Source of the DNA: Psammoneis japonica
Lineage: Eukaryota
NCBI GenBank assembly: GCA_008632985.1
Contig: QPGO01000040.1
Span: 315,719 to 379,718 of the forward strand
Length of the DNA stretch: 64,000 nucleotides
Reading direction: 5' to 3'
The notes beneath the pieces are model-generated. The model was given only the letters and a program-made list of their open reading frames with translations. It was not told the origin of the DNA and did no database searches. Position numbers and translations under genes: made by a program. Positions 3,001 through 58,168 of this stretch are shown here, one piece after another (positions within the stretch are counted from its first letter, which is position 1; each line of letters starts with the position of its first letter).

Positions 3001-6000
3001 NNNNNNNNNNNNNNNNNNNNNNNNNNNNNNNNNNNNNNNNNNNNNNNNNNNNNNNNNNNNNNNNNNNNNNNNNNNNNNNNNNNNNNNNNNNNNNNNNNNN
3101 NNNNNNNNNNNNNNNNNNNNNNNNNNNNNNNNNNNNNNNNNNNNNNNNNNNNNNNNNNNNNNNNNNNNNNNNNNNNNNNNNNNNNNNNNNNNNNNNNNNN
3201 NNNNNNNNNNNNNNNNNNNNNNNNNNNNNNNNNNNNNNNNNNNNNNNNNNNNNNNNNNNNNNNNNNNNNNNNNNNNNNNNNNNNNNNNNNNNNNNNNNNN
3301 NNNNNNNNNNNNNNNNNNNNNNNNNNNNNNNNNNNNNNNNNNNNNNNNNNNNNNNNNNNNNNNNNNNNNNNNNNNNNNNNNNNNNNNNNNNNNNNNNNNN
3401 NNNNNNNNNNNNNNNNNNNNNNNNNNNNNNNNNNNNNNNNNNNNNNNNNNNNNNNNNNNNNNNNNNNNNNNNNNNNNNNNNNNNNNNNNNNNNNNNNNNN
3501 NNNNNNNNNNNNNNNNNNNNNNNNNNNNNNNNNNNNNNNNNNNNNNNNNNNNNNNNNNNNNNNNNNNNNNNNNNNNNNNNNNNNNNNNNNNNNNNNNNNN
3601 NNNNNNNNNNNNNNNNNNNNNNNNNNNNNNNNNNNNNNNNNNNNNNNNNNNNNNNNNNNNNNNNNNNNNNNNNNNNNNNNNNNNNNNNNNNNNNNNNNNN
3701 NACCCACTTCGGCGCACGGAAGCCAAGGCTCCTGGAGTGGCAAGAACGTAGTCCAGTCTTCGTGAGCCTCGAACGCATGTGGAAAAATCAAGGTCTTCGT
3801 GATGGTGGTGCATGACATCGGACATGTTAAAGCGTTGGGCCATGGTGGCTAATGAATCAGAGTCATGCTGGAAATCAGCATTGAAATCACCGAACAAAAT
3901 GACGTCTCGGTCAGGTTCATCCAAGAATCATTCCAGGATCCGAGCAAGATCATAGCAGAAAGCTCGCCGCGGGTCCGGATTTGCACACCCTTGTTGTCGA
4001 AGGAGGGCCACCTGTTGAGCGCAAGCAGCAGTTTTTCCAGCAACTGAAGAAGAGTCAGAGCAAACTCTGCAACATGACATGAACACAACCTGCCGACCCT
4101 GTCTGCCGTCAAAAATTTGAACTGACCAACGTCCCAGAGGGTCTTCTTGTTGGGTGCGGCACCGAGCCGACAAAGCATTGCATGACATCAAAGCAGCACC
4201 TCCTGGTTTGTACGGGGTGGCGAAGGATGCAGAGGAGGAGGAGCACGCAAGTCTGCCGTGATGCAGGGACTGTTTGACCGTTGCCGTGCAGCTGCTGCGG
4301 ACTTGAAATTGAGTTGTGTCGAGGCAAATCTCAGATGTGCCGACCACGTCAGCTTGGATTTCCGTGGCCACCTGCGTGTGATCGTTAAAATCGCCGCCGC
4401 ATGAATCAAATGAACAACCATTGGCATTAAATGCGTGCAATCGTGTGTGGTCTTGATGTTTCGGGATGAGCAAGTCGCCGACGGGATCATTGGATGACAA
4501 TGTAGAATGGTCAATTGTGCCATTGGGTGGGGTGTAAGTTCGTCCTGATGACAAATGGCGCCACTGTTGTGCGGCGGGGTTCTCTGCATTAGAAGGGGTG
4601 TCACCCCTCATGGTGTTGCCGTGCTCCTTCGAAGGGAGACTTTGGTTGAGACTGATGTCTGCGTCATAGAAGAAAGGCAGGTGAGACGACTGGGCCTGCC
4701 TTAGAGAAAATTTGTAAAGGATGAATCGTTGGGCTCAGATTCGAGCATGGATGCATCGTCAGGAGGCTCTTTGTCGGAATTCCCAGGGGCAGAAACGGCG
4801 GCACGCTTGTGCTGCGGTGATGCAGGAGGGGGTTGCACANNNNNNNNNNNNNNNNNNNNNNNNNNNNNNNNNNNNNNNNNNNNNNNNNNNNNNNNNNNNN
4901 NNNNNNNNNNNNNNNNNNNNNNNNNNNNNNNNNNNNNNNNNNNNNNNNNNNNNNNNNNNNNNNNNNNNNNNNNNNNNNNNNNNNNNNNNNNNNNNNNNNN
5001 NNNNNNNNNNNNNNNNNNNNNNNNNNNNNNNNNNNNNNNNNNNNNNNNNNNNNNNNNNNNNNNNNNNNNNNNNNNNNNNNNNNNNNNNNNNNNNNNNNNN
5101 NNNNNNNNNNNNNNNNNNNNNNNNNNNNNNNNNNNNNNNNNNNNNNNNNNNNNNNNNNNNNNNNNNNNNNNNNNNNNNNNNNNNNNNNNNNNNNNNNNNN
5201 NNNNNNNNNNNNNNNNNNNNNNNNNNNNNNNNNNNNNNNNNNNNNNNNNNNNNNNNNNNNNNNNNNNNNNNNNNNNNNNNNNNNNNNNNNNNNNNNNNNN
5301 NNNNNNNNNNNNNNNNNNNNNNNNNNNNNNNNNNNNNNNNNNNNNNNNNNNNNNNNNNNNNNNNNNNNNNNNNNNNNNNNNNNNNNNNNNNNNNNNNNNN
5401 NNNNNNNNNNNNNNNNNNNNNNNNNNNNNNNNNNNNNNNNNNNNNNNNNNNNNNNNNNNNNNNNNNNNNNNNNNNNNNNNNNNNNNNNNNNNNNNNNNNN
5501 NNNNNNNNNNNNNNNNNNNNNNNNNNNNNNNNNNNNNNNNNNNNNNNNNNNNNNNNNNNNNNNNNNNNNNNNNNNNNNNNNNNNNNNNNNNNNNNNNNNN
5601 NNNNNNNNNNNNNNNNNNNNNNNNNNNNNNNNNNNNNNNNNNNNNNNNNNNNNNNNNNNNNNNNNNNNNNNNNNNNNNNNNNNNNNNNNNNNNNNNNNNN
5701 NNNNNNNNNNNNNNNNNNNNNNNNNNNNNNNNNNNNNNNNNNNNNNNNNNNNNNNNNNNNNNNNNNNNNNNNNNNNNNNNNNNNNNNNNNNATGCTTTGG
5801 GAGAAAATCCATGAGCAGAGCCACACGGGAGAGGTCCACGGCAGTCTCGTCCCATTGATGAAGTTGGACAAAAATCCCATCATCTTTGAGGACTTTGTTG
5901 ACAAAAGGAATGTTCCTAATGTCGGACAACATGAGGGAAGTGCGAATGCGGTGAGCGATGACAAACGTGGCAGGACGACGGCGGGAGCCACCAACTCGGT

Positions 6001-6410
6001 GCACGACAAAATGTTGGGAATGAGTGAGACCAGAGGTCCACTCGACGACGTCAATTTCGGGAATTTCCAACCCACGGTTCGAAAGTAAAGAGATTTTATC
6101 CACAAGAGGATCTTGAGAAGCCATCTGCTGCAAGGCATGGAGGACAGTCGCATGGCCCACAGCGAGCACGGTAGAAGCGTCATCATCTGCCGATGAAAGC
6201 TCAAAACGAAGAGCAATCTCCTTGATGGACGAGGCTGAAGTTTTTCCGGAGCCCGCACGGGCAGGAGTGGATGGAGTGTCGTTGTCATGAGGAGGATCAG
6301 GAGGAGGGTCACCGGCAAGGCTAGCCTGCGGCGGCGGAGGGATCGTCATGGCGACGGCTGCTTGGCACAAAAAGCCCGCAGGAATTCCACGCAGAACGCG
6401 CTGATGTGTG
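1..6410 (-). mobile_element. Non-LTR retrotransposon (LINE, Ambal-like): ORF1 + ORF2 (APE endonuclease, RT, RNase H); degenerate, interrupted by three N gaps, runs off the left edge
   Basis: ORF1 from ATG 6349 (MTIPPPPQ...) to 4664. ORF2 starts at 4611 with APE motifs (AFNANG, DVVGTSE, ILFGDFNA, GSRRLDYVL), RT motifs (LYGTGQGSGNSP...GYVDDT) and RNase H (AGSDGSV..GAAFGW..CAGPVSG). The clade name is inferred from the domain layout and diatom context. Confidence 0.85.
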
Positions 6411-6700
6411 CTTGCGTAGAAAAGTGCCATCCCACACTCTAAGTTGCACAAGCAACACACCGCCCTCTTGTTCCGCTGTGTGCGTGAGGTGATTGCCTCC
6501 AGTTTCCTCAGGTTCCACTTTGTCGAAGGTTCCCGCAACCCTGCTGACATTCTCAGCAAACACTGGGGATGCTCCCAGATTTGGGACCTCTTTTGCCCTC
6601 TCATGTTTTGGAACTTTGATTCCGAGGCCTTCAGTGATTCTGACTTTGAATCTGTTGCTGTGGACTCCTCAAGCAAACTGGGGAGTGACAGGATTTGAAC
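6410..6700 (+). mobile_element. Ty1/Copia (CoDi-like) 3' remnant: end of RNase H, PPT and start of 3' LTR
   Basis: PHSKLHKQHTALLFRCVREVIAS...NPADILSKHWGC..IWDLFCPLMFW matches the Copia RNase H C-terminus. PPT GGGGAG (6680-6685) is followed directly by TGACA. The 5' side abuts the LINE. Confidence 0.8.
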
Positions 6701-7379
6701 AAGATTTCAGTTCATCACACACAATTGTGTGTGCTCTTGGTTCCGCATGCAGTGTGCAGTGCAGTTTGCTTTTTAGCCATTTGGCTCACAAGAACAACAA
6801 CAGCAGCACCAACATCATGACAACAGTCTTTTGGCTCCTGCAACGGTCTCTGCACGAAGACTCATCTGCCATTTAGACAGCAGCAAGGAGTCGTTGTTTT
6901 CTTCCACCCAGTCATCTTCATTTTCTGTCACAGCCACGTCTGTGTGGCTTTTGTGCCAAAACCTGGACTTCTGATCCTGTTGTGACCACCCCATCAATGG
7001 AGTTGTCCTTTTCATTTGTGCTTGATGCTCCTGCTGCATGGGATGCAAAATGATGCATGACAGAGATGTGATGGTTGACCCAGCCAAGTGAGCTTCTGTT
7101 GTCTGTCACTGGGGAAAGCATGTTGACAGAGTGCTGACCTCTGCTTTAGAAATTTGCAAGAACAGTGTGATGTGATTCATTGTCTCTTTCATTCAGGTTG
7201 TCACTGCACCAGCATTGGCTAAATTTCTAGATGCTGCTGTGTGGCTGCTTCATCTGAACTGCTTGGCACAATCAAGAAAGTTTTGCATTTTCCATGAGGG
7301 GCAGTCTTGGTGGCAGCACCAATCAACACACCATGTTCTTCAGTGAGAACCTCTTGACATGTGCAGTCTGCATGTTTTC

Positions 7380-9000
7380 CAAAGCCCATCAAGGTGTCTC
7401 CTTCATCTTCACCCTCTCAACAATTTTCACTTCTTCACCAGCATCCTTTGTCTTCCTCTTCCACAGCACCTCATTTGCATGCCTGCCATCCTGTGCTGTC
7501 CTCTTCTTCCTCTTGAATGCTGTCATGTTCTTCACCACCACTGCCCAGCTCCAGAGAAAATTGACCCCCAAACCGGTTTTCAATCTCCTTGATGCAAGCT
7601 TTGACCTGTGCCAGCTCATCTTGTTGCCCTTGTCTGTCCAACAAATCATGCTCAACATGTTCCTTGATGCTGCTGATCTCCACAGAATCATCCACATTGC
7701 TGCCAGAAGAGTTGACAGCACTGTGTTTGTCACAAGAAGCTGAGTTGGGATTTCCCAAATCTCATTCTCCACATTTCATGAATTTGCAAAGTTTTTGGGT
7801 GCCTGTGAAATGTTGTGATTGTCCCAGCAGAGCAGCCCATGTGCCCCAAGCCTCTCATGTTGTGACTTCTGTTCTCATGTTGTTGAGTCAGTCCATCTTC
7901 TTTTTTGACATGAAATTTTTGAAACAAATCTTTGAGAAAGTTGTCTGGTTTGATGTTGTGATCTTCACAAAGGTGATCCTTCACCTCCGCAACCTTCAGA
8001 AAACGCATGGCAGATGCTTTCTTCACAGTCCCCCCATCAAGAGACCCAAGGACTTCAATCGGTCCATGTTGAAAGTCTCCAACTTCAATGTGCTGGCCTG
8101 TGCTGTTGCTGGAATTGATGCATCCATGCACCATGACATGGCATGCAGGACAGCAATGGAGCCCTCTTTGACAAAGAAAGTTGCTTTTTTGTGGTGTGTC
8201 TTGCTTTCCTGTGTGCAAGCTTGGGGAATCTGTTTTCATTCTTCCACTGTTTTTGTGACAATCATTGTTGGGTCATCTGATTTCAGCTGACCGTTCTCAT
8301 TGTCATCAGCACCCAGAAGCTCATTGTCACCTTGGTCATCATCATTGCTGTCCTTGTCATGCAAGGTCAGCATGCCATCCAAGCCAGGGTGTGTTTCAGT
8401 GGACTTCATTTTTTGCACACCACAGTGCCTTTCATGTCCCATTGCTGGAGGCTTGCAATTGTTCTCTTCATTGCTGTCTTGAAGCTCATTGTCACTGCCA
8501 ACCTTGAGGCCTGCACGTGAAACCATGTGATCCTCTTCTTCATTGGTGTTTTCAGACTCACTGTCACTTTCAAATTTTGGAGTGCACTTTGCATGTGAAG
8601 GCTTGCAATCCTCCTCTTCATTGGCATCTAGAAGCTCATTTTCATCTTGACTTTTGTCATCCCTGTCCAATCCTTCTCTTTTTTGCTGTCTTGAAGCTCA
8701 TTTTCAATTGCAAACTTGAGCACCCGCTTGGCATGTGGAGGCTTGTTCTTGAGGTTCTGCACTCTGTTGTCTGTGTCCTCATCATCAATCACCCTCCATC
8801 TGCTTGTTCCTGGAGCAACTTTCCTTGCCAGCCTTGTGGAATGGTGAGGTGCAGTGGTTGTTGACAAGCGCATTGCTTTCTTAACTTCCTCTTTGGAGTC
8901 ATTGTTTGAAAATGCCCCTGGTGGACCATCAGAGGACTCTGTGGAATTGTCATTGTCTGAGGGAGCACAGTCTCTGTCGCCACTGTCTCTCCACTCCTCT
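7380..9000 (-). pseudogene. Degenerate acidic ORF of unknown function with repeated [DE]NEL[LQ][DG] motifs, probably TE-associated
   Basis: Frameshifted ORF fragments. GAAGCTCATT recurs at ~8317, 8481, 8631 and 8692. TA and CG are almost absent. Confidence 0.3.
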
Positions 9001-12000
9001 TTGATTTCCTGCAATGCAGTGAAGAAATCTTTGCCTGAATGTTTTCTTTTTTGTGGCACACTGTGTCTCAAGCAGTCAAAACAGAAGTGCATGATGCACA
9101 GGAAATGGATTTCACCAGACATTGCACAGCTCAAGGGCGTTTTTTTCATTTCAAGGGAGCAATGACGTCATGATCATCATGTCAGATTCTAGCCAAACCG
9201 GGTGAAACATCACATGTGACATCACGATGCAAGGTCAGATTTTGCTCTGTTCCATCACACATTGTCATTGTTTTGTTCTGTTGTTTGTTTTTGCACACAA
9301 CACTTGCTTGTGCCTCTTCTTTTGTGATGTCTCACTCTCTCAACACGTTTGAGCACATGTCAATCCACTTTTGCCAACATTCCATGGTTTGTGATGATGT
9401 CTCTTCCCACCCCTGGCATTCTGTTTGCCCAAACATTCAAAAGTCAGGGTCTGCCAGAACGGCAGGTGTCCACAATGTTTGAAGGTCTTGACAAACCTCA
9501 GCTCCACAAGAAGCCACCTGATTCCCCTCCTCCAACAGCTGAAGAAATCATTGATTTCCTGCAGAATGTGCGCGACAGTCCTCCTTTGTTGCCGGCAGAA
9601 ACCGCCGCTCTCAAGACCAAGGACGCATGTGGGTCATGTCATTTTGTCAAGCAGTGCAACAACTTGGAGCCATGATTGGGCATGCAAGCAAGGACATTGT
9701 CTGGATTGCCTGGTGGAAGGTGAAAAGGTGTGGCTGACAATGCACTTTTGCAATTCGTGCAAACAAGGGACTGTCTGCAACATGCATTGTGGTGTTCATG
9801 GCTTGTGCAAGGTGCAGGTGGGTGCAAGGAAATTGAAGTGTTGACTGAAATTCATTCATTCTGTGGACATTTTACAAGCCAGTCAATGCAACATGCTGCG
9901 TGCATGAATTGCAAAAGGGGCACAGACCTTGCCCTTGATTCAGCATTGATGGATTGCAGCTCAGTGCACAGCACATCATCTGCACAAGCTCACTTTTTGT
10001 TCTTTGCAAATGTGACCTCATTGCTTGTCACTCACAGACAACAGAGACGAATGCATGAAAAGACACACACAGTGAAATCTGACTTTATGAGGGTGATGCA
10101 CTGGCGGTGCTCCAACAACCAATGAGCTGCAAAGTGCGTGCATGCAAAGGTGCAGACACAAACACACATTTTAAAAATTGTGCAACCTTTTCATTGAGAG
10201 GCATCTTGACAGTTTGAAAATGGGTTCATTGAAACTGTCAGTTTCCAAATGTGGCAATCACACCACACAACGATGATTTTTCCAGAGTGCACAGAACACA
10301 ACTGAAGAAGTTTTGAAAAAATGACACCAAAGGGAGATGGACAGCCGAGCAACAAGATGCAACAAACACAAACAACACCAGTTTTCAAGAGCACGTTGGG
10401 AACATTTCCATTGCACCCAAAAGAAATGACAAGATGAGTCTGGCAAACACAGCAACGGCTCTCTGCAATGTCGCAAGCTCATTTGGAGGGAACACCGGCA
10501 ACGGCAAAGGCAGAAACAAGATTCGCTGGATGCATTGTGATGAAACAAAAGACAAAAGTGCTGCTGTCCTGTTTCGCCATGATGACATGCAAAGCCAGGC
10601 AGCATCAAAAGATCACATCACACATCTCATCAAGAAACACCATGGAGCCAACTCCAGCAAGGTGTCCAATGAGACCACCTGGGATTCCTTCAAGAAAAAG
10701 CACGGCTCTTGCATGAAGGACATGAAGAAGGATGCCATTGACAGCATCAAGGCAGAGCTGCTGGCCATGTCTGTGGCTTGTGGCATGAGAGACAACAAGA
10801 CCAAGCTCCAAGTTTCCAAAACATGGCAAAGTGGGTGGCCAAGAGACCAATGTGGAAAGGATGGAGTGCTGCCTTCCACATCCTCCATGACAGCTGGGAC
10901 ATGCACTCCAATTGGTCATCAAACATGGAGGAGGCCATTTGGAGGAAGCGTGGTTTCAAGCACTCTGATGGCTTTGTTCCTTGCAAGAAGAAGCACGGTT
11001 GTGGTGTGAGAATTGTTGCTGCGGAAAAAACATGCAAGATCAGGGAACTGAGCAATTCTCTGAAAACACACTGTTGTGGGAACCACCCAACCATCAAAAA
11101 CAGTGCCAAATGGTTGGACGTGAACCTGGACAGGAGGGCATCTGCAGTTTTTCACTTCAAGCAGATGGCCATCAAGTTGCAAAAGCATGTTTCAAGGTTG
11201 CCAAGAGAGCTCAACACAAACTGCTCCATTCTGGAGAACATGCCTTGTCGCAAGGACAGTGGCGTCAACTTCAGATGGTTTGAGACAATCACATTTGGGG
11301 CTGACACAGCAAGAGAGATTAAGGAGGTGTTCAGCTTTGGCTGTGGCAGATCAAGACTGCAGATTGCTGGTGAAGAGATGTGTCCATCTTGCCAGGAGTT
11401 GACAACATGCCAAGATTCAAGTGCCTGCAAGAGAGCAAGTCATCCCACCAATGACAACTGGGTGGCAAGCTGAGACTTGAACACACTGCACGGTCCTGCC
11501 AATGCGACAAACAAGGGCACCACCACAATGGAGGGGGCTGGACACCAAGAATCAATTGCCGTTCCAACAATGATCAACGATGACGAGGGCAACTGGTGGG
11601 AACATGAGACAGGATCGTTTGTTGAGGGAGTGGATGAGGTGGGTGACTGGGCAACAGACCAAGGTTTGGAGACAGCATGGACATCAGAAAAGGCAGGTGT
11701 TGAAGGTGCAGCAGACCAAGATGAAAACACAGAAGGAACAGAGAAGGAAGTTTGACACCAGGCTTTGCTCCAAAACAGAGAACTGGAAAGCAGGCAGGCA
11801 GAGATGCATCACAACATTCAAAAATTGAGTGTGCCATGTGTGTGTCTTGTCTTGTCTTGTCATGTCATTCTCTGACCAGAATTCAAACAATTTCCCCAGG
11901 CAACAAAGATGGCAAGGGCAGAATTGATGAGGGCTGCACGGGAAAAGAAAAATGCGGTGGAAGGCAAAGTGACAAATGAAAGGAGCGACTCAAAAAAAAC

Positions 12001-12370
12001 CAAAGAGGAGCAAGAACCTGACCACTTGTTTGATGACAAGGAACTCAACTAACTCTTTGCAGCACGCCCCAAAGAAGCCCACTGCAACAGTTGCCCAGAG
12101 TGCATGGAGGCAATGAGAAAATTCAACAGAATGATCTTGGAGGGAACAGTTGGGGGGTTGGCTGCAAAAGCAAGGGAAAATGACAGAAAAAAAAAAAACA
12201 AGAAGAAATCAAAGAAAGGTGGCAACTGCAAGCAGAAATCCAAGGGGAAAATGAGCAAAGACAGTGGCACAGCACTTTCAAAGGGCACAGGCAAATTTGG
12301 CAGCAAAGCAACGGCTGCCAAGGAACAAGTCACCGATGGAACAGGCAATGAGCTGGAGGAACTTAAGGAG

Positions 12371-12505
12371 GATGAATGCTTGGTCAAGGAATTGCTCGGA
12401 CACAGGAAGCACAAAAAGAAGTGTCTCATGCTTTGAGACACAAGCAAAAAAATGTGGGAACCAGAAACAAACATCAGCAAACTGTTGGTGGATGAGCATT
12501 GGAAA
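12371..12505 (+). pseudogene. Degenerate chromodomain within a frameshifted ORF (~11,900-13,050)
   Basis: A single frame reads DECLVKELLGHRKHKKKCLML*DTSKKMWEPETNISKLLVDEHWK. With C/H restored to Y this fits the chromodomain pattern EY.V..IL.HR...YL..W.....TWEPE.NI...LV.EY. Confidence 0.65.
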
Positions 12506-14989
12506 AGAGCACAAGAGGATGAGGCAAGGGAGGTGCACACCAACAACAGGAAATGTGGACGTGCCACGCATGCAAGGAGCAGTTGGAGAATGGAGCAACA
12601 CCTTGCATTGAATGTGAAAAAAAGTGCCACAAGACATGCTCATTGCAGTTGGACAATGAACAGCACTGGTGCTGTGGTTGCGCCCAACCAAAGGACAGGC
12701 AGAGAATCACAAGCAACGTGGAGTGCAAGGTGCATGAACACACCAAGTTGTCACACTTCAAATGGTGTGAGACACTGTGGGAGCTTGTTGATTTCAAATG
12801 CAAACATTGTAAAACCAAGTGGACAGAGAACGACCGCAGAGCAGGTCACATGTGCGATGCAAAAAACAATGGGTGCTGCGGGGTGGCACATGTTGCATTC
12901 CTTGCGGCGACCAACAGTTGCAGACTGGGGGCATCTTTGGAAGAAACAAAAGAAGGGAGCATGAACTTGCATGGATGGGAGCGGGTGCAGGATTTGGCAG
13001 AAGCAAAAACAACAAGGTGGCAACAGGAGCAGCAAAATGGTGCACTGCAGCACTGACAGTTGATGCATGATTGTTGCATCGAACGTCAAATTGCACAACA
13101 TCAGATTTTGTGGTGTGCGGCCAACCTGAAAACCACATGCAGAAAATGACAGCACAAATGCTGAATTGAGAGTTTGGGTGTGACGTCCATGCAATGTGGA
13201 TGACATGCATCGAAAGTTCTGACATTGCAATGGTGACGTCATTGCCAGCACTTGGGGGGAATCTGACATCATGACATGGTGTCACACCATGATGTTGACA
13301 AGTGTTGCAACTGGAGCAACTTGCATTCTTGGGCAACACCATGGAATGACAAGTCAGGGAACTTGCCTTGACATGAGAACCCTTGACACAGGGCAACACA
13401 GATGGCAAACCCTCAAGTTGCGGGAGGGCCCCTCTGCATGTGGCAGTGAAGGGGTCAAGGGCCAAGATGTGTCAAGGGGGGCACAGGCTCAAGTTCAAGA
13501 AACAGGCTGGCATCTCGCCTCAACAGAAAAATGTTTAACATCCATTGTTTAAGATGATTTTTTACATGCCCATTTGCAACCTTTTTGGCAAATGTTTGGT
13601 CCATCATCTGTCCATCAGATCATGGATTTTCATGACCCTTAAAGTGTTTTTCACCGCGACACAGCACGGCACAATGGCGCCGTCACGCCGTCGCGATTTT
13701 GAGCACAATGGAAGGTGGGGCATCGGTTGCCGATGATTGCTTTGGTCCCTTTGGACACTCTAAAGGCTCGAATGCGTCATTGGCAACCAATGCCCCACCT
13801 TCCTTCATTGTGAAAATGCCGTCTCTTTTTCGCCATGGCCGCACCACGCACCATGCGTTGAGCGATCTTGCGAGTGATGACAAGGCACCTGCATCTCTGC
13901 GTGATTCAGTGCTCGTCGTTTGAATTTCCAATTTTCTCACACCAACATCATCAACTGTCATCGTCATTCGTGCAGCCATGGCATCCAGCAATGAAAAGAG
14001 CAGCAACACAGGAAAGAAAAAAACTTGTTGTCCTGTTAAAAAGAGAGTCAACAATGCTCTCATTCTCTTGACGGCACACGTCTGGGCAAGCTTTGATGGG
14101 AAATGGCTGTGCAAATGCAGGAGACATTCGCCGTGTGCTCCAGGTTAGCGGCATTCCAGGCGGAACAGCCCAAAATGACACACCGGATCCAAGGGCTTGG
14201 TTGCATTCTGCAGAAAGTCCAACAACAATGAAAGGTGCTGCCATTCAGCAAAATTTGAATCAGATCCCGACACTCCCGAATCTCAAGCCCACATTCAAAT
14301 TGAGTCATTCCGGATGGACTTGTTGGCGTGTGGTTTGTGTGATTCCCTTGTTGAATCCATTGATGCTTGCATGTTGCACAATCTACCATGAAGTCATGCA
14401 ACAAGGTGGACGCTGCTTCAGAATGGAGCAACCCATTTTATGGCAATTGCAATTACAGCGGTGTTGTTTTTTTCAACTGCCACTGCAACTGGTGACATTG
14501 AATCTAGAGTTGCAATTCACAATGTCATCACATTCTTTGAAATCATCACATTCTTCAGACGACTCAGCTGCCAGTGCAGTTGTCATGGTGTGCAAAGAAA
14601 CACCTCTCGCTTCAGTGTTGGAGGAGGGAGAAATAAAATTCTCAGATTGCACGTAATTTCAGTGCTTGAACACACGTGGAAAAGACAGCAAAACGATGCG
14701 CAGGCCAACCCACATTCGCAAAATGGGGCTCACGTGGTGGCCCTGCATGCCAGCCTGTTTCTTGGCCTTGAGCCTGTGAGGGGGGGGACTCCCCCCCCCC
14801 CAAGTTGGGCTGCATCTCAGGGGAAATGGTTTTCTGTGCAGCAGCATCACACTGCATCCTCAGGAGGGAAGCAAGTTGCAAAGTCACAGGAACACAACTC
14901 AACAGGACAAGCAAACAGACCACTCTCAACGACTCTTCTCAGCGTGCATCACAACACACCACTGCATCTTGACAAGTTGCGCGCGCACC

Positions 14990-16160
14990 ATGAATCCTGT
15001 CCTCTGGCTGCCGCCACTTGCATTTGAGGATGCTGCGAGGCTCTGCATCTGCATTCTCCTGTTGGAGGAAACATGGAGCAGTGGAGACATTGAGAATGTT
15101 GCGGGGGTGGCACAAGCCGTTCTCAACACAAGTCTGTCTGAGAAAGTCAACAAAAGGAAATGCCATGCCAGTGCAAACATCTGTGATGACAAAAAGCAGC
15201 ATGGCAAGAAATGTGCCAAGCCCAATTGTGACTCAGCTTTTTCTTCAATCACAAGGCACCACCTTGGCTCAGATGAAATCACACCACAGTTCAATGACAA
15301 GCAGTTTGAGCACTCCTTCAGAGTCACAAGGACAGCAGTGTTTCAACATGTTCTTAACCAGCTCTGTGGGTGTGACAGTTTTTTTCTTTGCAAATTCAGT
15401 GCTGCCAAAAAGCCTGGCATCCACTCTGAAGCAAAGGTCCTGGCTGCTGCTCTTAAGACCGTTTGTTGTGGCATGTCTGCCAGCTGTTTCTCTGATTGCT
15501 TTGAAATGAGAGAAACAGCACCAGGTGATTCAGCAAAGCACTTTGCACAAGGAACAAGGCACTTGCATGGCAAGACTCACCTGAGGAAGATGACCCAAGC
15601 CGATGCTGGTTGGGTGGCCAAGGAGCCACACAAGGAGACATTCAGCACGCAAGGATTCTTGGGATGCATTGACTGCATGCATGTGTTCTGGAAGAACTGC
15701 CCCATGTCATGGAAAGGACAGTGCCAAGGAAAAAAAGGAAAGCCATTGCTGATGTCACAAGCCATGTGTGACTGTGGCTTGTGGATGTGGCGTGCTGCCT
15801 TTGGATGCACTGGGACATTGAATGACATCAACACATGGGACCAAAGCCCGCTGCTCACTTGGATGCTTGACAGCGCTTTTGAGAACAAACTTGACCATGT
15901 GTGCAAAGTTGCATCAATCCTTTCACACAATTGCTCATTCTTGTTGATGGAATTTGTCCAGAACTTGCAAGCAAGATTCGTTTGCAAGATTTGTCAAGAT
16001 GACATCAGAGCCTGTTGGTTGCTCCAAGAAGTGCTTTGCTGTGTGGCAAGAAGTGGCAAGAAAAATGATTGAGCAAGCATGCGGTGTGTGCTCCAGAGAA
16101 AATTTTGCTGCCTTGCTGTGCCCACAGAGTTGTGGTGCACTGCTGACATTGAGGATCTAG
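14990..16160 (+). mobile_element. PIF/Harbinger DDE transposase pseudogene
   Basis: FEHSFRVTR..., GFLGCIDCMHVFWKNCPMSWKGQCQGK...DCGLWMWRAAFG..GTLNDINTWDQSPLL match the Harbinger motifs (DCMHW.WKNCP..W.GQY.GK, NDIN). Frameshifted after ~15,910. Confidence 0.88.
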
Positions 16161-19100
16161 CCTTTTGTTGCATCATTTGCATGACATGATGGTGGAGCAT
16201 CACATTTCAAATTCAAATGACCTGGAAGACAGCCATTTCTGCCAGTGTGCATTTGATGCACCTGCCACTGCAGGATCTGCCACAGGATCCGCTGCAGGAT
16301 CTGCCAATGGAGCCTCTGCTGGAGCCGCCGCTGGAGCCACCACCAACATTGGTTCTGGTGGGAAAGACATGGTTGCATCTGTGGAGCCCAATGAGTTGCG
16401 GAAACTTGCCGAGCTCAGACAGGAGGTGGCTCTTCAGTTGCGCAAGGACTTGCACAATGCTGAGCAGCACTGCCACCTTCATGCTGTGATTGTCAAGCAG
16501 CAGGTGCATGAAAACACCAATGCCACACAGCACTGTGACTGCTCGCAGGGCCCAAACCAACATTTTGGCCAGTCAGCAGATTGCTTGGTGACAGTCTTGT
16601 TCCAGATGGACTTGGAACATCTCATGCTTTTGCAGCCTCTCTAGACACTGAAGTTTCCTTTGCAAAAAATGGCAAGTGTCCATCTCACAAATGTTTTGCA
16701 ATGATTGCTCATTTGCAATTTTTGCTTGCAGCTCTGGAGGGTGGATCACATCCAAGGCCCAATTTGCAATTCACTTGCATGAATCGTAAATCCAAAAAGG
16801 GTTGCCAGTGCAAAACCCCCCTCTAAATGTGGTTGTTTGTAGAACGCAATGTGCAAGTCTGCCACACACCATCTGTCTGATGTGTGTCAAATGCGGCACA
16901 AAAAAACTGAAGTTTCACGTGCCAGCACAAAACTTTTGTGGGTGCAAAAGATTCCTGATGCTGCCAGTGGCAAGCAATGTGCTCACATGCCAGTTTGAAT
17001 CTAGGAAACTTGCAAAAAATTGGCGTTGACCATGGTGGAATCTTCAACTCAACCATGAATTTTTTTGCAAAAATGAGCGGTGACGCCTTGCCAATGCTGG
17101 AACCTTCATCAAGTCTTTGCCAAGCAGATGACAACATGCTCTTCATTGTGAGATGCAGCTGCATCATGTTGACCAACAACAAGGTTGTTCCAAGGTTAAA
17201 TGCACCACTCTGATGCAGCAGGATGAGTCATGTCCCTGTTGGGTTGCAGAAAACGGACAAGGTGGTTGATTTGTGTTGTTGATTGTTAGCGTCATCTTGT
17301 CATCAAGCATCATTGCAGCTGAAAGCATCTGCAATCTTTCCATTGCTGTTGCCTCAGTTTTGAGACCCAAAGCAAGGAAAAAACAGCAGCCATTGCAGAA
17401 GCAGCAGAAAAAAGCAACTTTTTCTGATGAAGCACCAATCCATTCACAGAAGGCTGGAACAGGAGCACCAGCTTCTGTGTCCATGGCAGGCCACACTCAT
17501 GGCAATGTGACAGGGCTTGTTGGAATGTGGCCAGGTGCAGCCCATCAAAAAAGCTGCAGCAGAGTTTTCCAAACTCACACGTGGCCTTTGTGCACACCAC
17601 GGAGTGTCTCTGTCCCACATTTGTGCAAATGCGAGTCTGTCACTGACTGCTGCATGTGTTTTTTATTTCCTCCACCAAAATGAGGTGAAGGAAACATTTT
17701 TAGAGTTGCAGACATTTTCAACCTTTGCAAATTTCTGCTTGATGCACTCAACAAGCTTGTTTGTGATGGTGATTGCATCAAGTCATGAAGCTGAGTGCAG
17801 AAAAGGATTTGACAATGACTGTGGTGGAGAGGGACACATGAGAGTTTGCACAAAATTAAAAGAACAACAGCACACATCATTTGTCACACCTGTGTTGCAT
17901 CAGCACACTGCTGTGTGTCATTTGCTTGTGCCAGCGACCATGTGCTGGACTGGCATGATGCGCATCTACAAAACACATGGTGTTCAGAGCTTGTGTGGAG
18001 TCTTTTTGTCAGCAATGATGACTGTGCAGAAAAAAAGGAAGGGGTGCACAAGAGCTCATGTGGCATCTTTTAAAAGAACGACATGTCTTTCATTTGCTGA
18101 TGCCAGACAACTGCTGGTGAAGATGCCAGCTCACATCCACATGACAAAAATCAGAGCACACAGTTTCTTTGTTCACCTTGGAAAAGGACTGGATGAGAGT
18201 TGACACAATGTGTCAGTCAGCACTTGAATTTTGTTTCTTTGTTCATGGTGACAAGACTGCATTCTTCATGATTGAGAAGAATGAACAATCAAGATGCCTG
18301 TGCCTCCCTCTGCAGAGATCTCTGCAAGACCCCTCTTCCTGCTGTTGTGTGATGGATGCACCTGCCAGCTTCACAACGCTTGCTGCACCTGCCACCAACA
18401 CCAGCCATTGTCTTTCTTAGACCAGAGCTTGTCTTTTTGTTGAGTTCTTCCATTTTGGCAATGCCATGCTCAATGTTGTCATGCCACTCCAAAGCTTTGA
18501 TTGCCAACCCTCTGGAAAGCTCTGTGCCATCAGCCCTCGTGAGGTTGTCTGCTGCAGTGCATGCAGCACTTGTCACTGTGGTGCCACTGCTGCTGGTGGA
18601 CGACATCACAGTTGGTGCAGACTTTTTCTTGGTGCATGGATTGACAACAATGCTTGGCATGTTCAATGTTTTGTGTCTCACTCAGCATCTCTGTTCACAC
18701 ACATTGGTTGCATGATGCCATTGTGTCTTGGCAGCTCCACCCAGCTCCATGTGTGCTGTTGAAGCAGCACAATGTGACTGAGATGATGATGCAAGCTGTG
18801 GTGCAGAGCACAAGGCAAGCACAAGCACTGGCACTTAAGATGAGCTGGTGCAAGCGGTGGTGCTGTGCATGCTGCACCACCTCTCACACAGCTTTTGTCA
18901 TGCACCCAGGGACAGACCAAGTTTCACACAATTTGCATCTCAGCAGTCCCAAGTTGCAACAATTGGCTGATTCCTTCCAAAAAAGGTGTCTTTGTGGAGT
19001 GAGTCAGTGCATGTCATGGCCATGGTGGCAGCAACTTCTCTGGTTCTCAATCTTCTCCAGAACAAGAAGCTGCAACTCTGTGTCTGCGGCTGACACACAC

Positions 19101-19764
19101 CATGAGCCCTGAGCTTGGCCACTTGGTTGCAGCACCTGTTCTCAACTTGCTGCTCTTGACACTTGTGCTGGTGAGCAAGCCAAGCCACTCAAGCATCAAT
19201 GAATCATGGCCTCTGAGAGAGCCCTCAGTTTCGGAAAACTTTCAACACCAGCGAACAAACACACACCAAAGGAGCTGAACAAGAGCTGTTTTGTTGTGTT
19301 GGAGAAAATGGAGAAAAGGTGCTTGGCTGCATCAATGACAAAAAATGTGTCTCTCCTGACACATGCACAGGTTGATTGGTGGAACTCATCGCATTCTTGA
19401 CCATGCTTGAGTGGAGAATGTCAAGCTGGACAGAGCTTGCAGTGCCAGTCAAAAAGATGAAAAAGACAAAGTTGAGCTGCACAGCTGTTTGAGACATGCA
19501 CCACACAGGCCAACATGTCTGCTGAGCTGTGCACTCTGACCCCAAAGGGCAGTCAATCAGTGACAGATCACCACTCTGATGCTCCAACTGTTTCAGAAAT
19601 TGTGAGAGGAAAACAACCACAAAATGTGAGCAAAGGTGAAGATCTCAGCAATGATTGTGTCTTCCTTCTTTGGCAGCTGCTGCTCAAGCCATCAGTGAAA
19701 GCAGCTGCTGCACCCCACCATGCAAGAGCTCAACCAATGGTTGACTTGCTTGCTCTCACACACC

Positions 19765-20333
19765 CACAGATTTGGACCAATCCAGGCTGTCCATTTTTCA
19801 TGTCATCAAAGCAAGCTCCCACAGAAACAGCATCTCCAACACGAGAAAGTGACATGCCACAACCAAAGTTGTTGCCAGCTGCTTGTCCAATGATGTTGCT
19901 CCTGCCAAGTTGCCCCCAATGAGAACCACCTCCAACACTGTCATCATCATCCACTCCAACCACAAGTCTTGGTTTGTCACCATTCAATGACAACTCACCA
20001 AACTGATTGCTGCCAGCTTCTCCAAGCAAATGTTGTCCCACAGGTTCCCACTGCTGATTGCTTGATGGAATCAAAACATGGAACACAATTTCTGTCACAG
20101 GGTTTCACTCTGCAGCAACACTCCCATCCAAAGACAACAAAATGGAGTCATCAAAATGACCACAGGAGGAAGCTTGGTTGTTCAAGACCTCTGCCCAGAT
20201 GCTTTCTGTGGCACTCTGATTTCAACCAAATCTTCAAACACAAGTTTTCTCACAACCACACCTGCTGCCTTGAGCTCATTGGTGACAATGGATCTTCCAA
20301 AGGGTTGGCCACCAATGCATTGATTGCCATTGT
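19765..20333 (-). pseudogene. FG-GAP membrane-protein pseudogene, piece 1 (3' part), paralog of 45,790-46,405
   Basis: Direct alignment by eye, e.g. agatttggaccaatcc / agatttggaccgatcc, gctcccacag / gctcctacag, ccaaagttgttgcc / ccaaagttatcgcc. Confidence 0.85.
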
Positions 20334-21300
20334 TGCGACACTTGATTCCAGTCGCCTTGCCCATTTCCTTGTCTTGCATCAAGTCCACCATTTCCACGCA
20401 ATTGGCAATTGCGGCACCCTCCTTGGCGGCCGTCAGGGTGACACATGCATTGGTCCGAGCATCGTTGTGCTGTCCTTTGCAAAAGACTTGAAAGCACTTG
20501 GCATCCTGATCCAGTTGCAGAAATTTGCGCTCAGCCCACTTTTTTCCCACAACATGCAACGGCAGACACGTAAAGCCCAAAAGAGAGTTGCAAAACTTCA
20601 TCATGGCCGGCAAAGTTGCCGGTGCCGTGGCGAAAATGAAGTGCCCAAAGGCCGGTGGCCACGCAATCCAGGAAGCAATGGGCGCCCAATTGCACAAATG
20701 GGGGTTGTGTTCCAACAAGACCCTTCATTGTTTGTGAGCACCCAGCACCATTTTGAATTCGGAAACAAAGTCCCTGGTGGCGTCAATGGGACGAAGGAGG
20801 TTTCGAAAACGAAGCAATGCCGAGAGCGACATGGCAATGCAGCGGATTCCGGCCCAAACCAATTTGGTGCTTTGAGACGACATTTTGTTTCCAAAATTGC
20901 CGTGTTCAATCAGTGCTGTGCTGAGACCATGCGAGGTGGCATCGAGAGTGGCACCCCATCCCGCGGCACCTCCACCCACGACCAACACATCAAACGTCGT
21001 GTTGGATTGGAGGCGTTCCAACTGTTGAGCGCACGTCGGGATGGGCTTGTTGTTTTTGGAAAGGATGATCTGTTCCGAGGAGGAGGTTCATTTCTTCTCT
21101 TCCAGAGAAGTTTTCTTGTCATCCAACAAGCTTGAGTTGCTGAAAAAGAACAGCCCACAAGAGGCAGCACCGGCAACCACACAATCTTGCACTGATGGGC
21201 AGCGGCGCAACTCATCATGGTGAGAATTCTCCAGGACATCAAATGGTGTTTGTGTGATGACGCTTTCCTCATTTTTCTGTTCACGCTGCGAGAGAGTGGT
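20334..21300 (-). pseudogene. FAD-dependent (mitochondrial-type) glycerol-3-phosphate dehydrogenase, 3'-truncated pseudogene
   Basis: FDVLVVGGGAAGWGATLDAT.HGLSTALIEHGNFGNKMSSQSTKLVWAGIR is the GlpD/GPD2 N-terminus, followed by GQHNDARTN...TAAKEGAAIANCVE. Contains stops/frameshifts and Y->C changes. Confidence 0.85.
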
Positions 21301-21927
21301 TTGTTCTGTGGTGCACAACATCATCGTGCTTGTGGCATGCATGCGCACCCGCTTCTGATGCTTCTCAATGGTCTTGCATGGAACAACAAGTGTTGAAAAG
21401 CAATCTGCGCAAGTGTGGTTGGCTCAAGTTTGCAATGATGGGCATTTGCTCTTTGCCCATGTTTCTCCCCGGAATTGCTGATTGGGCTCTGCACAGAATG
21501 TTTGCTCAAATTCTGAAAAACTGTCACTTTGATTCTGCAACCGCACCCGATGCCGCCATTTTTTCTCGAGGGCATCTCTGCAAAAGCCTGCTTTGCAACA
21601 AAGAAGGCCTTTGTGCATGATGTGATGGAACCAATGACAGTGCCAGACAGTCTCTCGTCTTTGGCTGTCTTTGGTGATTGAGACATCTGTGGCAGCGACA
21701 TGATCAAAAAATTTGGCAATCGCTTTCCTGCGCACGTTGTGACAACGCAGGACACCTGACTTGGGTCGATCAGCCAAGAGTGCTGGCTCGTGTTCTCAGT
21801 CAATTTCACTCAACGAGGCCCAAAGAGTGAGGCAAAAAAAATTTCCAACGTTGCAAGACATCTCGCTGGTGCAACAAACCCATCCAAGGAGCCGCCACGG
21901 ACAACATGCTCGCAGGGTTCCCAAGAT

Positions 21928-22307
21928 TTCATTTTCAAAAACAAGTGGCACCAAAAAACTCAAAAACTGACATCATGCGGGTGAGCAAAGTAGATTTTGG
22001 CCATTTTACGAAAAAAATCAAGTAGATTTTTTACTAAAGTCTACTGGATTTCTACCTGTAATCTTAGTACAGTCTGCACGTCACCCTAAAATGTGGAAAA
22101 AGTACAAAGAACCTGTTCTGCATAGAGTCTATTTCGCGCGATAGCGCGCATGACTACCCCAGATTTTCTTGCAGCAGGAGCTCGTTTTCTGACTAATAAG
22201 TAGTTTTCAGGTAAGTAGAAGTAGATTAAGTAGATTTCGAGCTATTTAGCAAAAAAACGTCATGATGTCGGAAGTTGATTTTTTCGGTGCCACTTGGTCA
22301 AAAATGA
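21928..22307. repeat. MITE-like foldback: ~50 bp imperfect inverted repeats enclosing several AAGTAGA(TTT) direct repeats
   Basis: tcattttcaaaaacaagtggcaccaaaaaactcaaaaactgacatcatg (21,928-21,977) matches the reverse complement of catgatgtcggaagttgattttttcggtgccacttggtcaaaaatga (22,261-22,307). Confidence 0.6.
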
Positions 22308-22453
22308 TTTTTTTCCAAATAAAAATAAACTCACGACTGGCCTACGTATTCATGGTGGATGGCAGACAGACGGCGGTGCGTCCACTTTTTCAAAGTCCCA
22401 ACAACCCATTCCCCCGCGATCTTGTTGACTGCTGTGTCCCTTATTTGATCGCG

Positions 22454-24508
22454 ATGAGTCCCAACACGAGCAAGGAAATGAGCGTTTGGGTCCAACTCTA
22501 CATCGGCAAAGAGAAGAGTGGAGATGTCTTTGACATCTGTGAGAATCTGAGGAATGTTAGTCATCTCAAGGAAGCAGTGAAGGAGAAGTGCAAGAATTCA
22601 CTCAAAGACGTTGACGCGCATGACCTCAAGGTGTTCGCCGCGGGTGCACAGCCGGGCCGAGATGAGCCTCTCCGCCCCGACAAGAAGGTTTCAGAGTTGG
22701 ATGAAACAAGTTATGGCAAGCCTCTGGTTGTGGTTGCACGGGGAATGCAGCAGCAAATCGGTGAGTGCATTCTCACGGGTTTCCAATTTGTTGTCGCATT
22801 CTGGTAGTCAATGTATCGTCCAAGAAAATCACTTTGCCAATGTTCTCTCCTGTTCCATATGTTTCAACTTGTTCTGGCTGAAAGTTAACCATGATGGTAT
22901 GTTCCTTGTCGACGTTCAATCGCAAATTCGGGAAATTGCAAAGCGGACGAGTTCAGGTCAAAGAGGATGAAATACGATGGTTGTGCTGAAGCGGTGGCAC
23001 TCGTCAACGCTTTTGAACAAGCCGTGAACGTCGAGTCGGGACATTTAAAATTTGTTTCTGAATTGTGTTCAACTCTACGGAAGCTTTTCTAACTTTTACA
23101 TTCTCGTAACCCGCTTCTAGCGTCCATACAGGCTACTAACGAGTTGCTGCGTGGCGTCAAGAGATACCTGGAAGCTCCCCATGAAAGGCATCCCGGCCCA
23201 ACCCCAATTGAAACTCCAGCAAGTATTGGGTTTATGACAAAGCTAGAGCTGACAGAACACAACGTTTTTCAGCGATTCAAGGAGGTCCCAGGCCAACCGT
23301 CTGTCCTTGATCAAAGCCAGCTTGGCCAGCTATCGGCTGTTTCCGACGAACACCAAGTGATTGCCTTCCTGACTCCATTCTTCGAAGAGATTATCGGTCA
23401 TGATTCCGATATCGGAGTGGTTAATTCAGAAGAGTGCCCATGGCTAGTGACTAGTTCGCACTCATCCAGATTCAACCAGAAACCAGACACCATCTTCTGC
23501 AACAATGCAATATACTCGGCACGCGCTCCTTTCCATACGATAGAACCTGTACTAGTTGGGCTTCGACGCCCGACAGACAAGTTCGGCGCTCTAACTGACT
23601 GGAGGCTTCGTGATTGCATTGATACCACTGGTGAAGGTAAGATCAAAATCGACAACCAAGCTTTTGGCGAAGTGATCAACTACGCAAGACACATTTGCTA
23701 CCATGGGGGTCCCGAGCGCACGAAGCTGTTACTCTTTGATAGGACCGAGTTTTGGCTTGTCTCCGCCGTAAGGGGTGCCATTTCACTCGTTCAGACCTGT
23801 GGCTGGGGCGTCCCGGGATCAAGGCAGATATTGAGGGACTATATTCACCTTGGCCGCTCATCGTGGATCAAGCTTTTAAATGATGCTTGTACTCATTGGC
23901 AACTCACAGTTTCGAGTGATTCGTTTCTCGGAATGGGAAGGTTCGGGCGAGTCTTCAAAGTTTCCAAGCGTGATGAAGGAGGAGGGCGTTCACAGTTTAT
24001 GGCTCTGAAGCTGGTTTTACCAGGAAGGCAGGGTGAACAACCTTTGGAGCTTGATAAAGAAAGAGACTCGTTAGTTCGGACGGCTCAAGTTCTTCCGGAT
24101 GTTGTTGCTCATGTTGAAGGCTTTAATAACTTTGGAGACAATGGAGCCGCGTTGCTCCTTCGTGATGTTGGCGGGAACGTACCACAAAAGGCAAGGCACA
24201 AAGTTTTTGAAGCCCTCGGATTGCTTCATGAAAACGATATCGTACACGGTGATCCTCGTCTTGATAATGCCATTTATGTACAGGAATCAGTACGCTGGAT
24301 TGACTTTCGAACGTCTGCTGTCTTTCTGGACCCAGCAGATATCAAGTTGAAGCGGCGCGACATGACGATTCTTGCGAGGTCTTGTTGCAAGGAAATGTCG
24401 CTCTTAGTTTTGGAACCAATGATCCAGCAATACAACGGGACCAAGGCCTCAGCTCGCGGGATTTCTGATACATTGATGGTCCAGCATCAGCAGGCAGTTC
24501 TAACTTAA
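22454..24508 (+). CDS. Crinkler (CRN/CR)-type protein: N-terminal Ubl-like domain + PD-(D/E)xK REase-like domain + kinase-like domain; exons 22454-22760 and 23121-24508
   Basis: Exon 1 VWVQL...NVSHLKEAVKEKCKNSLKDVDAHDLKVF...PLVVVA resembles CRN N-terminal domains. A phase-1 intron GTGAGT(22761)...TTCTAG(23120) joins the exons in frame. REase-like KPD...GEGK...GEVINY; kinase GMGRFGRVF, ALKLV, HGDPRLDN, IDF. No stops; Tyr retained. Confidence 0.8.
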
Positions 24509-24846
24509 TTACTTGTCTTTCTGCTCTTTCCAGAGAGTAAGTTTTTCAAGTATCCGGTGGTGATCCATGCTATGTATTCGCAATCCCTTTTTCTGCACGT
24601 TACGATATGGCTATCTGCAAATTATGCCTGGGGGTGCCGCGCCGCCACGTCCAGTTTCAAATCCACCTACAATAGTCTAAGTTAATAAAAATGAATAGTT
24701 TTGGAAAAATGACCGTTTTCACGAGAAACCGTCGCCAGTTTCCAGTTTCCACAAGTACCTAGTAGCTACAACCTAGTAGCTACAATGTAGCCTAGCATTG
24801 GGATGTTTAAATAAATGTAAGACTAAGTATGTGGTTAATTTTTTCT

Positions 24847-25700
24847 CTAAAAGTACTGGATGCGTGTGTTGTTCGGTGGTGGCTCAGGAGTTGGAGTTGG
24901 AGGACAATCCTGCAGCGGTGGCTTCTGCTTTCCTGTCCACTCAAGGCGCGGCTTCAAAATGTCAATCTTGCATCGATTCAAACGTCCTCCAAGCCCGCCA
25001 GTTGTTGCCAAGTTTTGTTGACTGGGCCGTTTCTTTTTAATTTGAGCTTCAACCTGGTGGTCCTTCTTCTCGTACTCAAGCATCTTTGCTAGGCACTTTC
25101 TTTGGATGGAGTCACCGTGATCCCAAAAGTTTTTGCTTTTCAGTGTTGGATTCGACAAAGGCAGCCCGCTCCTCTTCTGAAATAACGACATCAATCAGCT
25201 CTAGTGTGTTCGTCACCATGTATTTCTCCGAGAAATTGTTTGGTACCGAAATTTCACTGCATTTACCTGCTTTCAGCAGGCCAAATCGGTGCAACTCCAC
25301 AAGCATTGCAGTTACAGTGGTAGAAGTGCAGAACTTCTCTTCAGCTCGTGCACTGTAGTGCAAACTGGCGACTGCATTGGTCGAGCGCTTGATCGAGCGC
25401 TGGTGCATATCCGTACTAGGCAGCCGAACAACCTGCGGTGCCGAGGGTTCATCACTGCTTGCTGGATCGTGATGCGGGGACTTGTTTCTTGATCCATCTT
25501 CATCGCTGCTCTCTTCATCGAGAGCTCGTTTTAGATTTGGTGGACTCCTCAACAAAGCAAGCTTGGCGGTGGCTGTGGCGTTTGTCTCTCTGAGTTGGGC
25601 CACTTCACCATGCAAGTTTGAGACTGTCTCACAAATTTCGTTTTCCACGGGAAAGTCATTTGGTCAAATGGGCCACGATTCTGCACTACGCGCCGATGCG
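24847..25700 (-). pseudogene. Frameshifted ORF fragment of unknown function (coiled-coil/acidic, probably TE-derived)
   Basis: ORFs 25112-25648 and 24847-25194 appear to join through a frameshift near 25,125. No family recognised. Confidence 0.3.
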
Positions 25701-25899
25701 CATTGTAGAGTTTCAACGCCGCATCGTAGCCACCAGCGGTGCATGTTGCCGTGCCAAGAGAGGGAGTTCACCTGCCATGCTGTTCAGGCAGGAGGTGAGC
25801 GCTGAGACGAGAGAAACAGCAGCGCGGCAACGAAGGATGAAGAGAGATCCGGGCGAAGCGCAGGAAGCGCATGTGACAAGAGAATTGAACCGTTGGAAA

Positions 25900-58050: not shown

Positions 58051-58168
58051 ACGCAATGGATGAAAATGGCGCTGAACGCATCGCATGTTTCGTCATCAAG
58101 GTGCGGCATGTCGCAAGTCACAACTCGCGGTGTCGCGGTCAGCGGTCAGTCGTCGCATGGCCCTGCTT

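Follow-up and report, generated by a model that had tools for sequence, protein, structure and literature searches.

Why would a genome lose one dinucleotide almost completely from some blocks of its DNA while keeping it in the blocks alongside, and why would the few copies left behind sit between particular neighbouring bases? These questions are raised by a 64,000-nucleotide stretch of the genome of the diatom Psammoneis japonica (GenBank assembly GCA_008632985.1, contig QPGO01000040.1, positions 315,719 to 379,718 of the forward strand; hereafter the window), in which genic blocks with about 41 TpA per kb alternate with eroded blocks with 4–5 TpA per kb, the G+C content being about 48% in both. 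Comparison of repeat copies shows that T:A pairs at TpA become C:G, i.e. TA turns into TG or CA, with TpA as the near-exclusive target, and that a TA pair is hit about four times faster in 5'-TAY than in 5'-TAR (Y, pyrimidine; R, purine), a per-strand rule of which we are highly confident. This strand-resolved quantitative rule, its validation on held-out DNA and the null results on clustering and hairpins are what is new here.

TpA erosion along the window

Eroded and non-eroded blocks were delimited by two-state segmentation, with three runs of N (1385-1754, 2743-3701 and 4840-5791; 2,281 bases in total) left out of the counts. The blocks, none of which is assigned a strand, are as follows.

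1..21983: TpA-eroded domain 1, from segmentation and profile; 4.2 TA per kb; CpG retained in places and gone in others
6700..19400: deeply eroded repeat DNA, the region studied most closely; 45 TpA in 12,701 bases, i.e. 3.5 TA per kb versus about 41 in genes
21984..25418: non-eroded control block with a kinase-like gene; 41.6 TA per kb; sharp edge near 21,984
25419..44378: TpA-eroded domain 2; 5.3 TA per kb; remaining TAs 56 YTAR, 43 mixed and 1 RTAY
44379..57008: non-eroded control block with FG-GAP and kinase genes; 40.9 TA per kb
57009..60562: TpA-eroded domain 3; CpG mostly retained (44 CG per kb)
60563..64000: non-eroded control block with an LRR gene; 41.3 TA per kb

The erosion is limited to the repeat-rich blocks, and the genes are spared. 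Contigs from a short-read run (X1), which may be the same sample as the assembly, match the eroded sequence at 99.6% (18 differences in 4,747 bases and 21 in 5,098), and the erosion is therefore not an assembly artefact. About 0.4% of bases differ between X1 and the window in eroded DNA (6903-20660), versus 0 of 2,664 in the adjacent gene (22249-24912). Among 35 annotated differences, drawn from 40 of 343 rows, 10 exchange CG with TG or CA, 4 exchange TA with TG or CA and carry no polarity, and 4 form two double changes between TG and CA.

Which TpA survive

The preliminary description of this DNA, made from its letters, had claimed that the residual TAs are mostly TTAG, CTAA, CTAG or TTAA, that GTAC, ATAT, GTAT and ATAC are essentially missing, and that most exceptions are TTTAY or RTAAA. 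The counts bear this out. The 45 TpA between 6,700 and 19,400 comprise 32 YTAR (TTAA 14, TTAG 7, CTAG 7, CTAA 4), 8 YTAY (TTAC 3, TTAT 3, CTAC 2), 5 RTAR (GTAA 3, ATAA 1, GTAG 1) and no RTAY; all 16 positions named in the description are of the four YTAR types to within one base (e.g. 6774, 10172, 15355), and 8 of the 13 non-YTAR survivors are TTTAY or RTAAA, sites whose share in normal DNA is 15%.

Could all NTAN classes have been depleted equally from an uneven start? After normalisation to the pool of xTAy, xTGy, xCAy and xCGy, equal depletion predicts 9.3/11.8/12.4/11.5 for YTAR/YTAY/RTAR/RTAY versus the 32/8/5/0 observed (chi2 = 72, p = 1e-15). The rest of the window's eroded DNA gives 62/26/25/1 (p = 3e-17), and the window's non-eroded DNA tilts in the opposite direction, with 239 RTAY versus 177 expected and 147 YTAR versus 196 expected. 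An artefact of a tandem array was considered for the survival of TTAA, as one segment holds 25 TTTAAT/ATTAAA, and was rejected: of the 16 eroded segments, 13 have YTAR as their largest class, alone or tied, and the other 3 hold at most 7 TAs each.

Repeat families and the direction of change

Copies of repeats present in the eroded DNA allow the changes to be polarised. The following repeats lie in or at the edge of the region under study.

6427..6933, plus strand: 3' end and long terminal repeat of a copia retrotransposon family, with RVT_2 in a sibling copy; 21 siblings used for the flank rule
14780..16072, plus strand: eroded remnant of a Plant_tran transposase (PF04827, E 1e-20), presumably of PIF/Harbinger type
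16711..16815, minus strand: eroded fragment of an 824-bp miniature inverted-repeat transposable element (MITE), with near-identical intact copies on other contigs; second family for the rule
16901..18982, plus strand: dispersed repeat, eroded; relatives of 68-79% identity on several contigs

At least 8 near-identical intact copies of the MITE keep all 60 TpA, and the eroded copies form a series. In the copy on contig C204, 41 of the 60 TpA have changed, all of them to TG or CA, together with 6 of 367 other A/T bases and 3 of 51 CpG, and no base has been deleted; by these counts TpA is lost first and CpG later. The TpA process is thus separable from CpG decay, which it leads in young copies. 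For copia, a 7.3-kb copy on contig C403 served as the reference for the 21 siblings, and the 2,544 outcomes at bona fide TpA sites were 1,962 TG or CA, 531 TA, 10 CG and 41 other.

Across the copia and MITE alignments, A>G occurred at 38-83% of opportunities in TAN versus 0-4% in other NAN; for example, GAA changed at 1-2% and TAY at 68-83%. The specificity for TpA is at least about 30-fold, and nearly all hits are transitions. Among non-TA contexts AAY is hit most (2.5-3.5%) and CA least. As a side observation, non-TA A>G also favours a 3' pyrimidine (252/15,750 versus 127/17,342, AAY highest), a lean that may stem from a weak side activity, or may be no more than the usual background.

Of the 534 TAs left in the eroded copia copies, 484 occur in another copy as well, and hence most are true, ancestral survivors; 47 of the 534 are private or derive from CG columns, and for 8 of the 13 window survivors that have homologues, the homologues show no TA.

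A per-strand flank rule

A change to TG marks the A of the top strand as changed and a change to CA that of the bottom strand, so that each site yields two competing rates. We fitted these as competing risks to 3,067 site-by-copy outcomes, drawn from 226 ancestral TpA sites, giving each copy a single exposure and excluding columns in which fewer than 70% of copies had TA, TG or CA, two near-intact MITE copies, one duplicate and two non-aligning fragments. A single parameter for pyrimidine or purine at +1, i.e. immediately 3' of the A, raises the log-likelihood by 273 units, versus 2 for the same distinction at -2. The per-strand factors (95% intervals from a site bootstrap) are 3.9 (3.2-4.8) for C, 4.0 (3.2-5.3) for T and 1.3 (1.0-1.7) for G at +1, 2.2 (1.8-2.8) for A at -2, 2.1 (1.8-2.7) for any base but A at +2 and 1.8 (1.5-2.1) for a purine at -3; positions +3 and -4 matter less. 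The best context is roughly R-A-T-[A]-Y-not-A, and the worst are A-tracts of the TTTAAA kind. Fitted separately, the +1 pyrimidine factor is 3.8 in the MITE and 4.0-4.2 in copia; the families agree on all factors but +3, and parameters trained on copia lift the MITE log-likelihood from -518 to -467.

Is the unit of recognition a symmetric four-base site or the flank of a single A? Mixed sites (YTAY or RTAR) offer TAY on one strand, and it was this strand that was hit in 986 of 1,375 cases, forming the majority at 102 of 121 sites (MITE 207:72, 31 of 36 sites; copia 779:317, 71 of 85 sites). We therefore reject a symmetric reader of RTAY that hits either strand equally, for which 50% is expected. 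A full 16-context model gains only 11 log-likelihood units over the additive +1/-2 model for 9 extra parameters, and thus no four-base site is needed. The pattern of survivors follows: YTAR survives because neither strand offers TAY, RTAY is gone because both strands do, and TTTAY and RTAAA survive better because the -3 and +2 terms shield them too. Of the earlier interpretation, a tetranucleotide fingerprint of an enzyme with flanking-base specificity, the specificity stands over compositional drift on the strength of the polarised copies, whereas the single four-base fingerprint gives way to two summed per-strand rates; the enzyme itself is a matter of inference, as is its identity.

Three points count against this account of the flank rule. 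The copia reference, with 204 TA in 7,292 bases, has undergone part of the erosion itself and is tilted to resistant sites; copies may share hits by descent, their pairwise concordance being 0.50-0.75; and in the MITE alone, which has very few YTAR sites, YTAR survival (10/36) is not above that of YTAY (50/166).

For a held-out test, 224 kb, composed of the window, 120 kb of flank and four 10-kb samples from other contigs, were segmented; 116,717 bases came out as eroded and 107,283 as normal. After 6,512 bases homologous to the MITE and copia training families had been masked, 106,892 eroded bases were tested. Relative survival was 0.81 for TTAA, 0.31 for CTAA, 0.21 for CTAG, 0.15 for GTAA, 0.12 for CTAC, 0.087 for ATAA, 0.031 for ATAG, 0.026 for GTAC, 0.008 for ATAC and 0 for ATAT. 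The model order equals the observed order for all 10 folded NTAN classes, with ATAG and GTAC nearly tied in the prediction (rho -1.0; a perfect order arises by chance with probability 5.5e-7), and the order holds both where CpG is kept (rho -0.97) and where it is lost (-0.99). For the region from 6,700 to 19,400 the model predicts 26.5/8.4/8.4/1.7 YTAR/YTAY/RTAR/RTAY versus the observed 32/8/5/0.

Strand clustering, hairpins and CpG

Do hits arrive singly or in bursts along one strand? Neighbouring hits fall on the same strand in 1,047 of 2,054 cases, versus 1,042 +/- 23 under the null, and hence show no strand clustering; hits behave as independent events, both between strands and between neighbours. 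There is no strand bias per copy (overdispersion chi2 34 on 34 df) and no sign of strand-coordinated patches, the residual correlation staying within +/-0.05 in ten distance bins from 1 to 7,300 bases. A position in a hairpin loop is without effect (exp(beta) 0.99, permutation p 0.98), as are local GC, CpG within 3 bases and the predicted probability of being unpaired; CpG within 10 bases, one of six effects tested, comes out borderline (x0.79, permutation p 0.049), and no weight is put on it. The lack of strand clustering and of a hairpin effect agrees with events at single sites in DNA that is duplex or opened for a short time, although many rounds could hide strand bursts.

CpG loss may also occur by itself. 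A related copia element in a metagenome contig (L214, 4,027 bases) has a CpG observed/expected ratio of 0.01 and keeps its TpA, 35 of 146 being RTAY; this one contig suggests that in another organism CpG has been erased and TpA has not. A scan of metagenomes for copia reverse transcriptase gave 1 locus, not TpA-eroded, and a scan of viral contigs gave none. Diatoms carry DNMT5 and DNMT4/RID-like methyltransferases, according to the available text of PMC9998398, and these can explain the loss of CpG, not that of TpA.

What erases TpA?

The most likely agent, to which we give an even chance, is an adenine deaminase that acts on DNA and is directed to silenced chromatin. Adenine would be deaminated to hypoxanthine, which would pair with C at replication and be fixed as G; the enzyme would hit sites singly in the course of many divisions, on DNA that is double-stranded or opened for a short time, and its target would be marked by silenced chromatin and not by sequence homology. 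Taken together, TAY-biased, strand-separate erasure of TpA in repeat-rich domains, likely by a deaminase, is the best overall explanation, and we regard it as an evenly balanced proposition. A comparison of context spectra, suggested by the preliminary description, gave a divided answer: TAY agrees with the editors derived from TadA, and the WA preference (W, A or T) of Pol eta disagrees.

Several observations weigh against a deaminase. A TadA-like enzyme would be expected to feel hairpins, and there is no hairpin effect; strand clustering, expected from a processive single-strand deaminase unless many rounds averaged it out, is absent; at -2 the process prefers A, whereas the tRNA of TadA has C; CA is the least-hit non-TA context, whereas CAT is accepted by ABEs (adenine base editors) in the text available (PMC10879117); and none of the deaminase-fold genes from our genome searches could be tied to the process. 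In addition, T[A]Y on one strand is R[T]A on the other, and a thymine lesion therefore fits equally well: the sequence reads the same whether A or T is chemically altered.

It is this last point that keeps the first alternative, which we consider unlikely, in contention. In it, an enzyme of silenced chromatin modifies thymine in 5'-RTA, and the modified T pairs with G; oxidation to formyl-uracil and O4-alkylation are candidate chemistries. The spectrum and the context would be the same, and a record of transitions only, with no strand clustering and no hairpin effect, suits an enzyme acting on duplexes. It is set back by TAY being the documented optimum of TadA-derived editors, by the lack of a precedent in the literature searched and, weakly, by the absence of a Tet_JBP (PF12851) match in the genome, a search that had no positive control and was also silent in every control genome.

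We find it improbable that an error-prone polymerase of the Pol eta/iota type refills repair patches in methylated repeats and inserts G opposite T where the primer ends in T. Pol eta prefers WA and produces T>C at TA, along with transversions (PMC9723645, available text), and the lead of AAY among non-TA sites is the order expected for WA. However, TA is hit at least about 30 times as often as AA, TpA sites show transversions at close to the background level, the C204 copy of the MITE is free of deletions and collateral changes, and the strand-coordinated patches looked for are missing; the non-TA A>G changes (379/33,092) are about as frequent as non-CpG C>T (319/33,049), and so may be ordinary background.

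Local failure of mismatch repair in heterochromatin, exposing ordinary T:G replication errors, would draw on a component of mismatch-repair-deficient spectra, T>C at RTA, and would suit the greater polymorphism of the eroded DNA relative to the neighbouring gene. We give it very little credence, as it is nearly excluded by the TpA specificity: the C204 copy has 68% of its TpA hit, few other A/T changes and no deletion despite 11 homopolymer runs. Finally, that the residual TAs were newly made from CA, TG or CG by transitions, or are a by-product of CpG decay or composition, is scarcely credible, and the polarised comparisons rule it out as the main cause, even if the private or CG-derived TAs and the survivors whose homologues have no TA show that new TAs can supply a minority, since most copia residuals are shared between copies, a balance of creation and erasure predicts 19/10/10/5.5 (observed 32/8/5/0) and does worse than the survival model, the class ranking is the same where CpG is intact, and the single L214 copia contig has lost CpG yet keeps TpA.

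Comparison with known systems

How does the process compare with those already described? The published accounts below are used as far as their available text goes. By analogy, the process appears to work like the TpA hypermutation of Bigelowiella natans, in whose mutation-accumulation lines T:A>C:G transitions occur at TpA only (Mettrop et al., bioRxiv 10.64898/2026.01.13.699255), affecting integrated DNA of nucleocytoplasmic large DNA viruses and virophages at a de novo rate raised about 1000-fold, in only some lineages. Shared are the confinement of transitions to TpA, on both strands, in silent foreign or transposon DNA, and the resulting blocks poor in TpA and rich in TpG and CpA. B. natans is a rhizarian alga whose mutations were measured de novo, whereas the change in P. 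japonica is accumulated, has run nearly to completion in about half of the DNA sampled and is accompanied by CpG loss. The main text of that report, supplements apart, contains neither a flank rule nor a mention of diatoms, whereas here a TAY rule is measured; the +1 preference we find does not speak for its candidate, ADAT2. A tentative extension, which we think less probable than the deaminase itself, is that this diatom lineage and Bigelowiella share a natural chromatin-guided adenine deaminase of duplex DNA that acts on one base per event and prefers (R-A-)T-[A]-Y. If true, this enzyme would be an adenine counterpart to RIP (repeat-induced point mutation) and a natural double-strand adenine base editor. 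In the literature searched, with most subscription journals outside its coverage, there was no report of TpA erasure in diatoms or of its flank rule.

Base editors derived from TadA edit best at TAY and accept CAT and GAY (PMC10879117), and the native substrate of TadA reads U-A-C-G (PMC6506237). The process shares with them A>G and the TAY optimum (a +1 pyrimidine being worth about x4 per strand here); unlike engineered ABEs, it has at least about 30-fold TA specificity and no signal of hairpins or single-strand bursts. Amphioxus ADAT2/3, an enzyme that occurs naturally in a eukaryote, can likewise deaminate A in DNA, and prefers GAA, TCG for C, and hairpin loops (PMC10354150); in contrast, GAA stays close to background here and hairpins make no difference. 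ADAR shares A>G, a 5' U/T preference and action on repeats. However, it acts on RNA, ADAR2 having its hot spot at UAG (PMC10661471), whereas TAG is slow here, with G at +1 worth x1.3 versus x4 for a pyrimidine. Pol eta in somatic hypermutation shares T>C at TA (PMC9723645), but the AA hits and transversions of its repair tracts are not above background here. RIP of ascomycetes is similar as a context-specific, near-saturating mutation of repeats in genome defence; it differs in changing C to T and thereby creating TpA, which the present process removes, and in that single-copy DNA within the eroded domains is eroded too (20,400-21,900, for which no close paralog was found, only 68-73% fragments in non-eroded DNA on contig C93).

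What follows for the search for an enzyme? Hypermutation that erases TpA has so far been measured in a single alga, and a strand-resolved context rule is an assay read-out for finding its enzyme: a candidate must give transitions only, at least about 30-fold TA specificity, a fourfold effect of a +1 pyrimidine, a twofold effect of A at -2 and protection of A-tracts. The rule argues against ADAR-like, amphioxus-ADAT2-like and Pol eta readings, and it predicts directly how the published mutations of B. natans should be flanked if both algae share one system. A natural duplex-DNA adenine editor, if it exists, would matter for genome defence, for the annotation and dating of diatom transposons and for base-editing tools.

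Deaminase genes in the genome

Searches of the genome (91 Mb, 597 contigs) returned putative deaminase-fold genes: dCMP deaminases, a bacterial-type TadA, an ADAT2, guanine-deaminase-like genes, a RibD and one APOBEC-like gene, family labels beyond Pfam and PDB matches being motif readings. Profile matches numbered 9 for PF00383, 5 for PF14437, 1 for PF18778 and 5 for PF18750, and an APOBEC-domain protein search gave 2. The DNA pattern HAE...PCxxC had 66 matches, and among the 42 loci translated, intact frames occurred only in deaminase genes already found. The TadA, which keeps the RNA-type Asp at the position equivalent to D108 and has an N-terminal leader, is probably organellar. The ADAT2 has Asn at that position, which is ordinary in ADAT2. 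An AID/APOBEC-like frame (SNAD4/NAD1/APOBEC_N, E ~1e-12) lies in non-eroded DNA at L167:1057-2019, minus strand (G000:C2), and at L137:313-1785, minus strand (G000:C79), a zinc deaminase domain is in one frame with a 2OG-Fe(II) dioxygenase (DIOX_N and 2OG-FeII_Oxy).

The edge of domain 1 and the adjacent gene

The DNA at 19900-21900 is apparently single-copy, with TpA erased (about 1 TA per kb) and CpG partly retained. A small element with 36-bp inverted arms at 21942-22296 spans the erosion edge near 21,984; its left arm has TG or CA at two spots where the right arm has CG, and its interior TAs are intact. The edge thus seems to lie within the element, which suggests targeting by position. 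The gene at 22250-24678, plus strand, combines a Crinkler-type N-terminal domain (PF20147, E 1e-5) with a kinase-like exon, and a contig of a further run (X2) joins 22,759 to 23,120 within it, as a spliced intron would.

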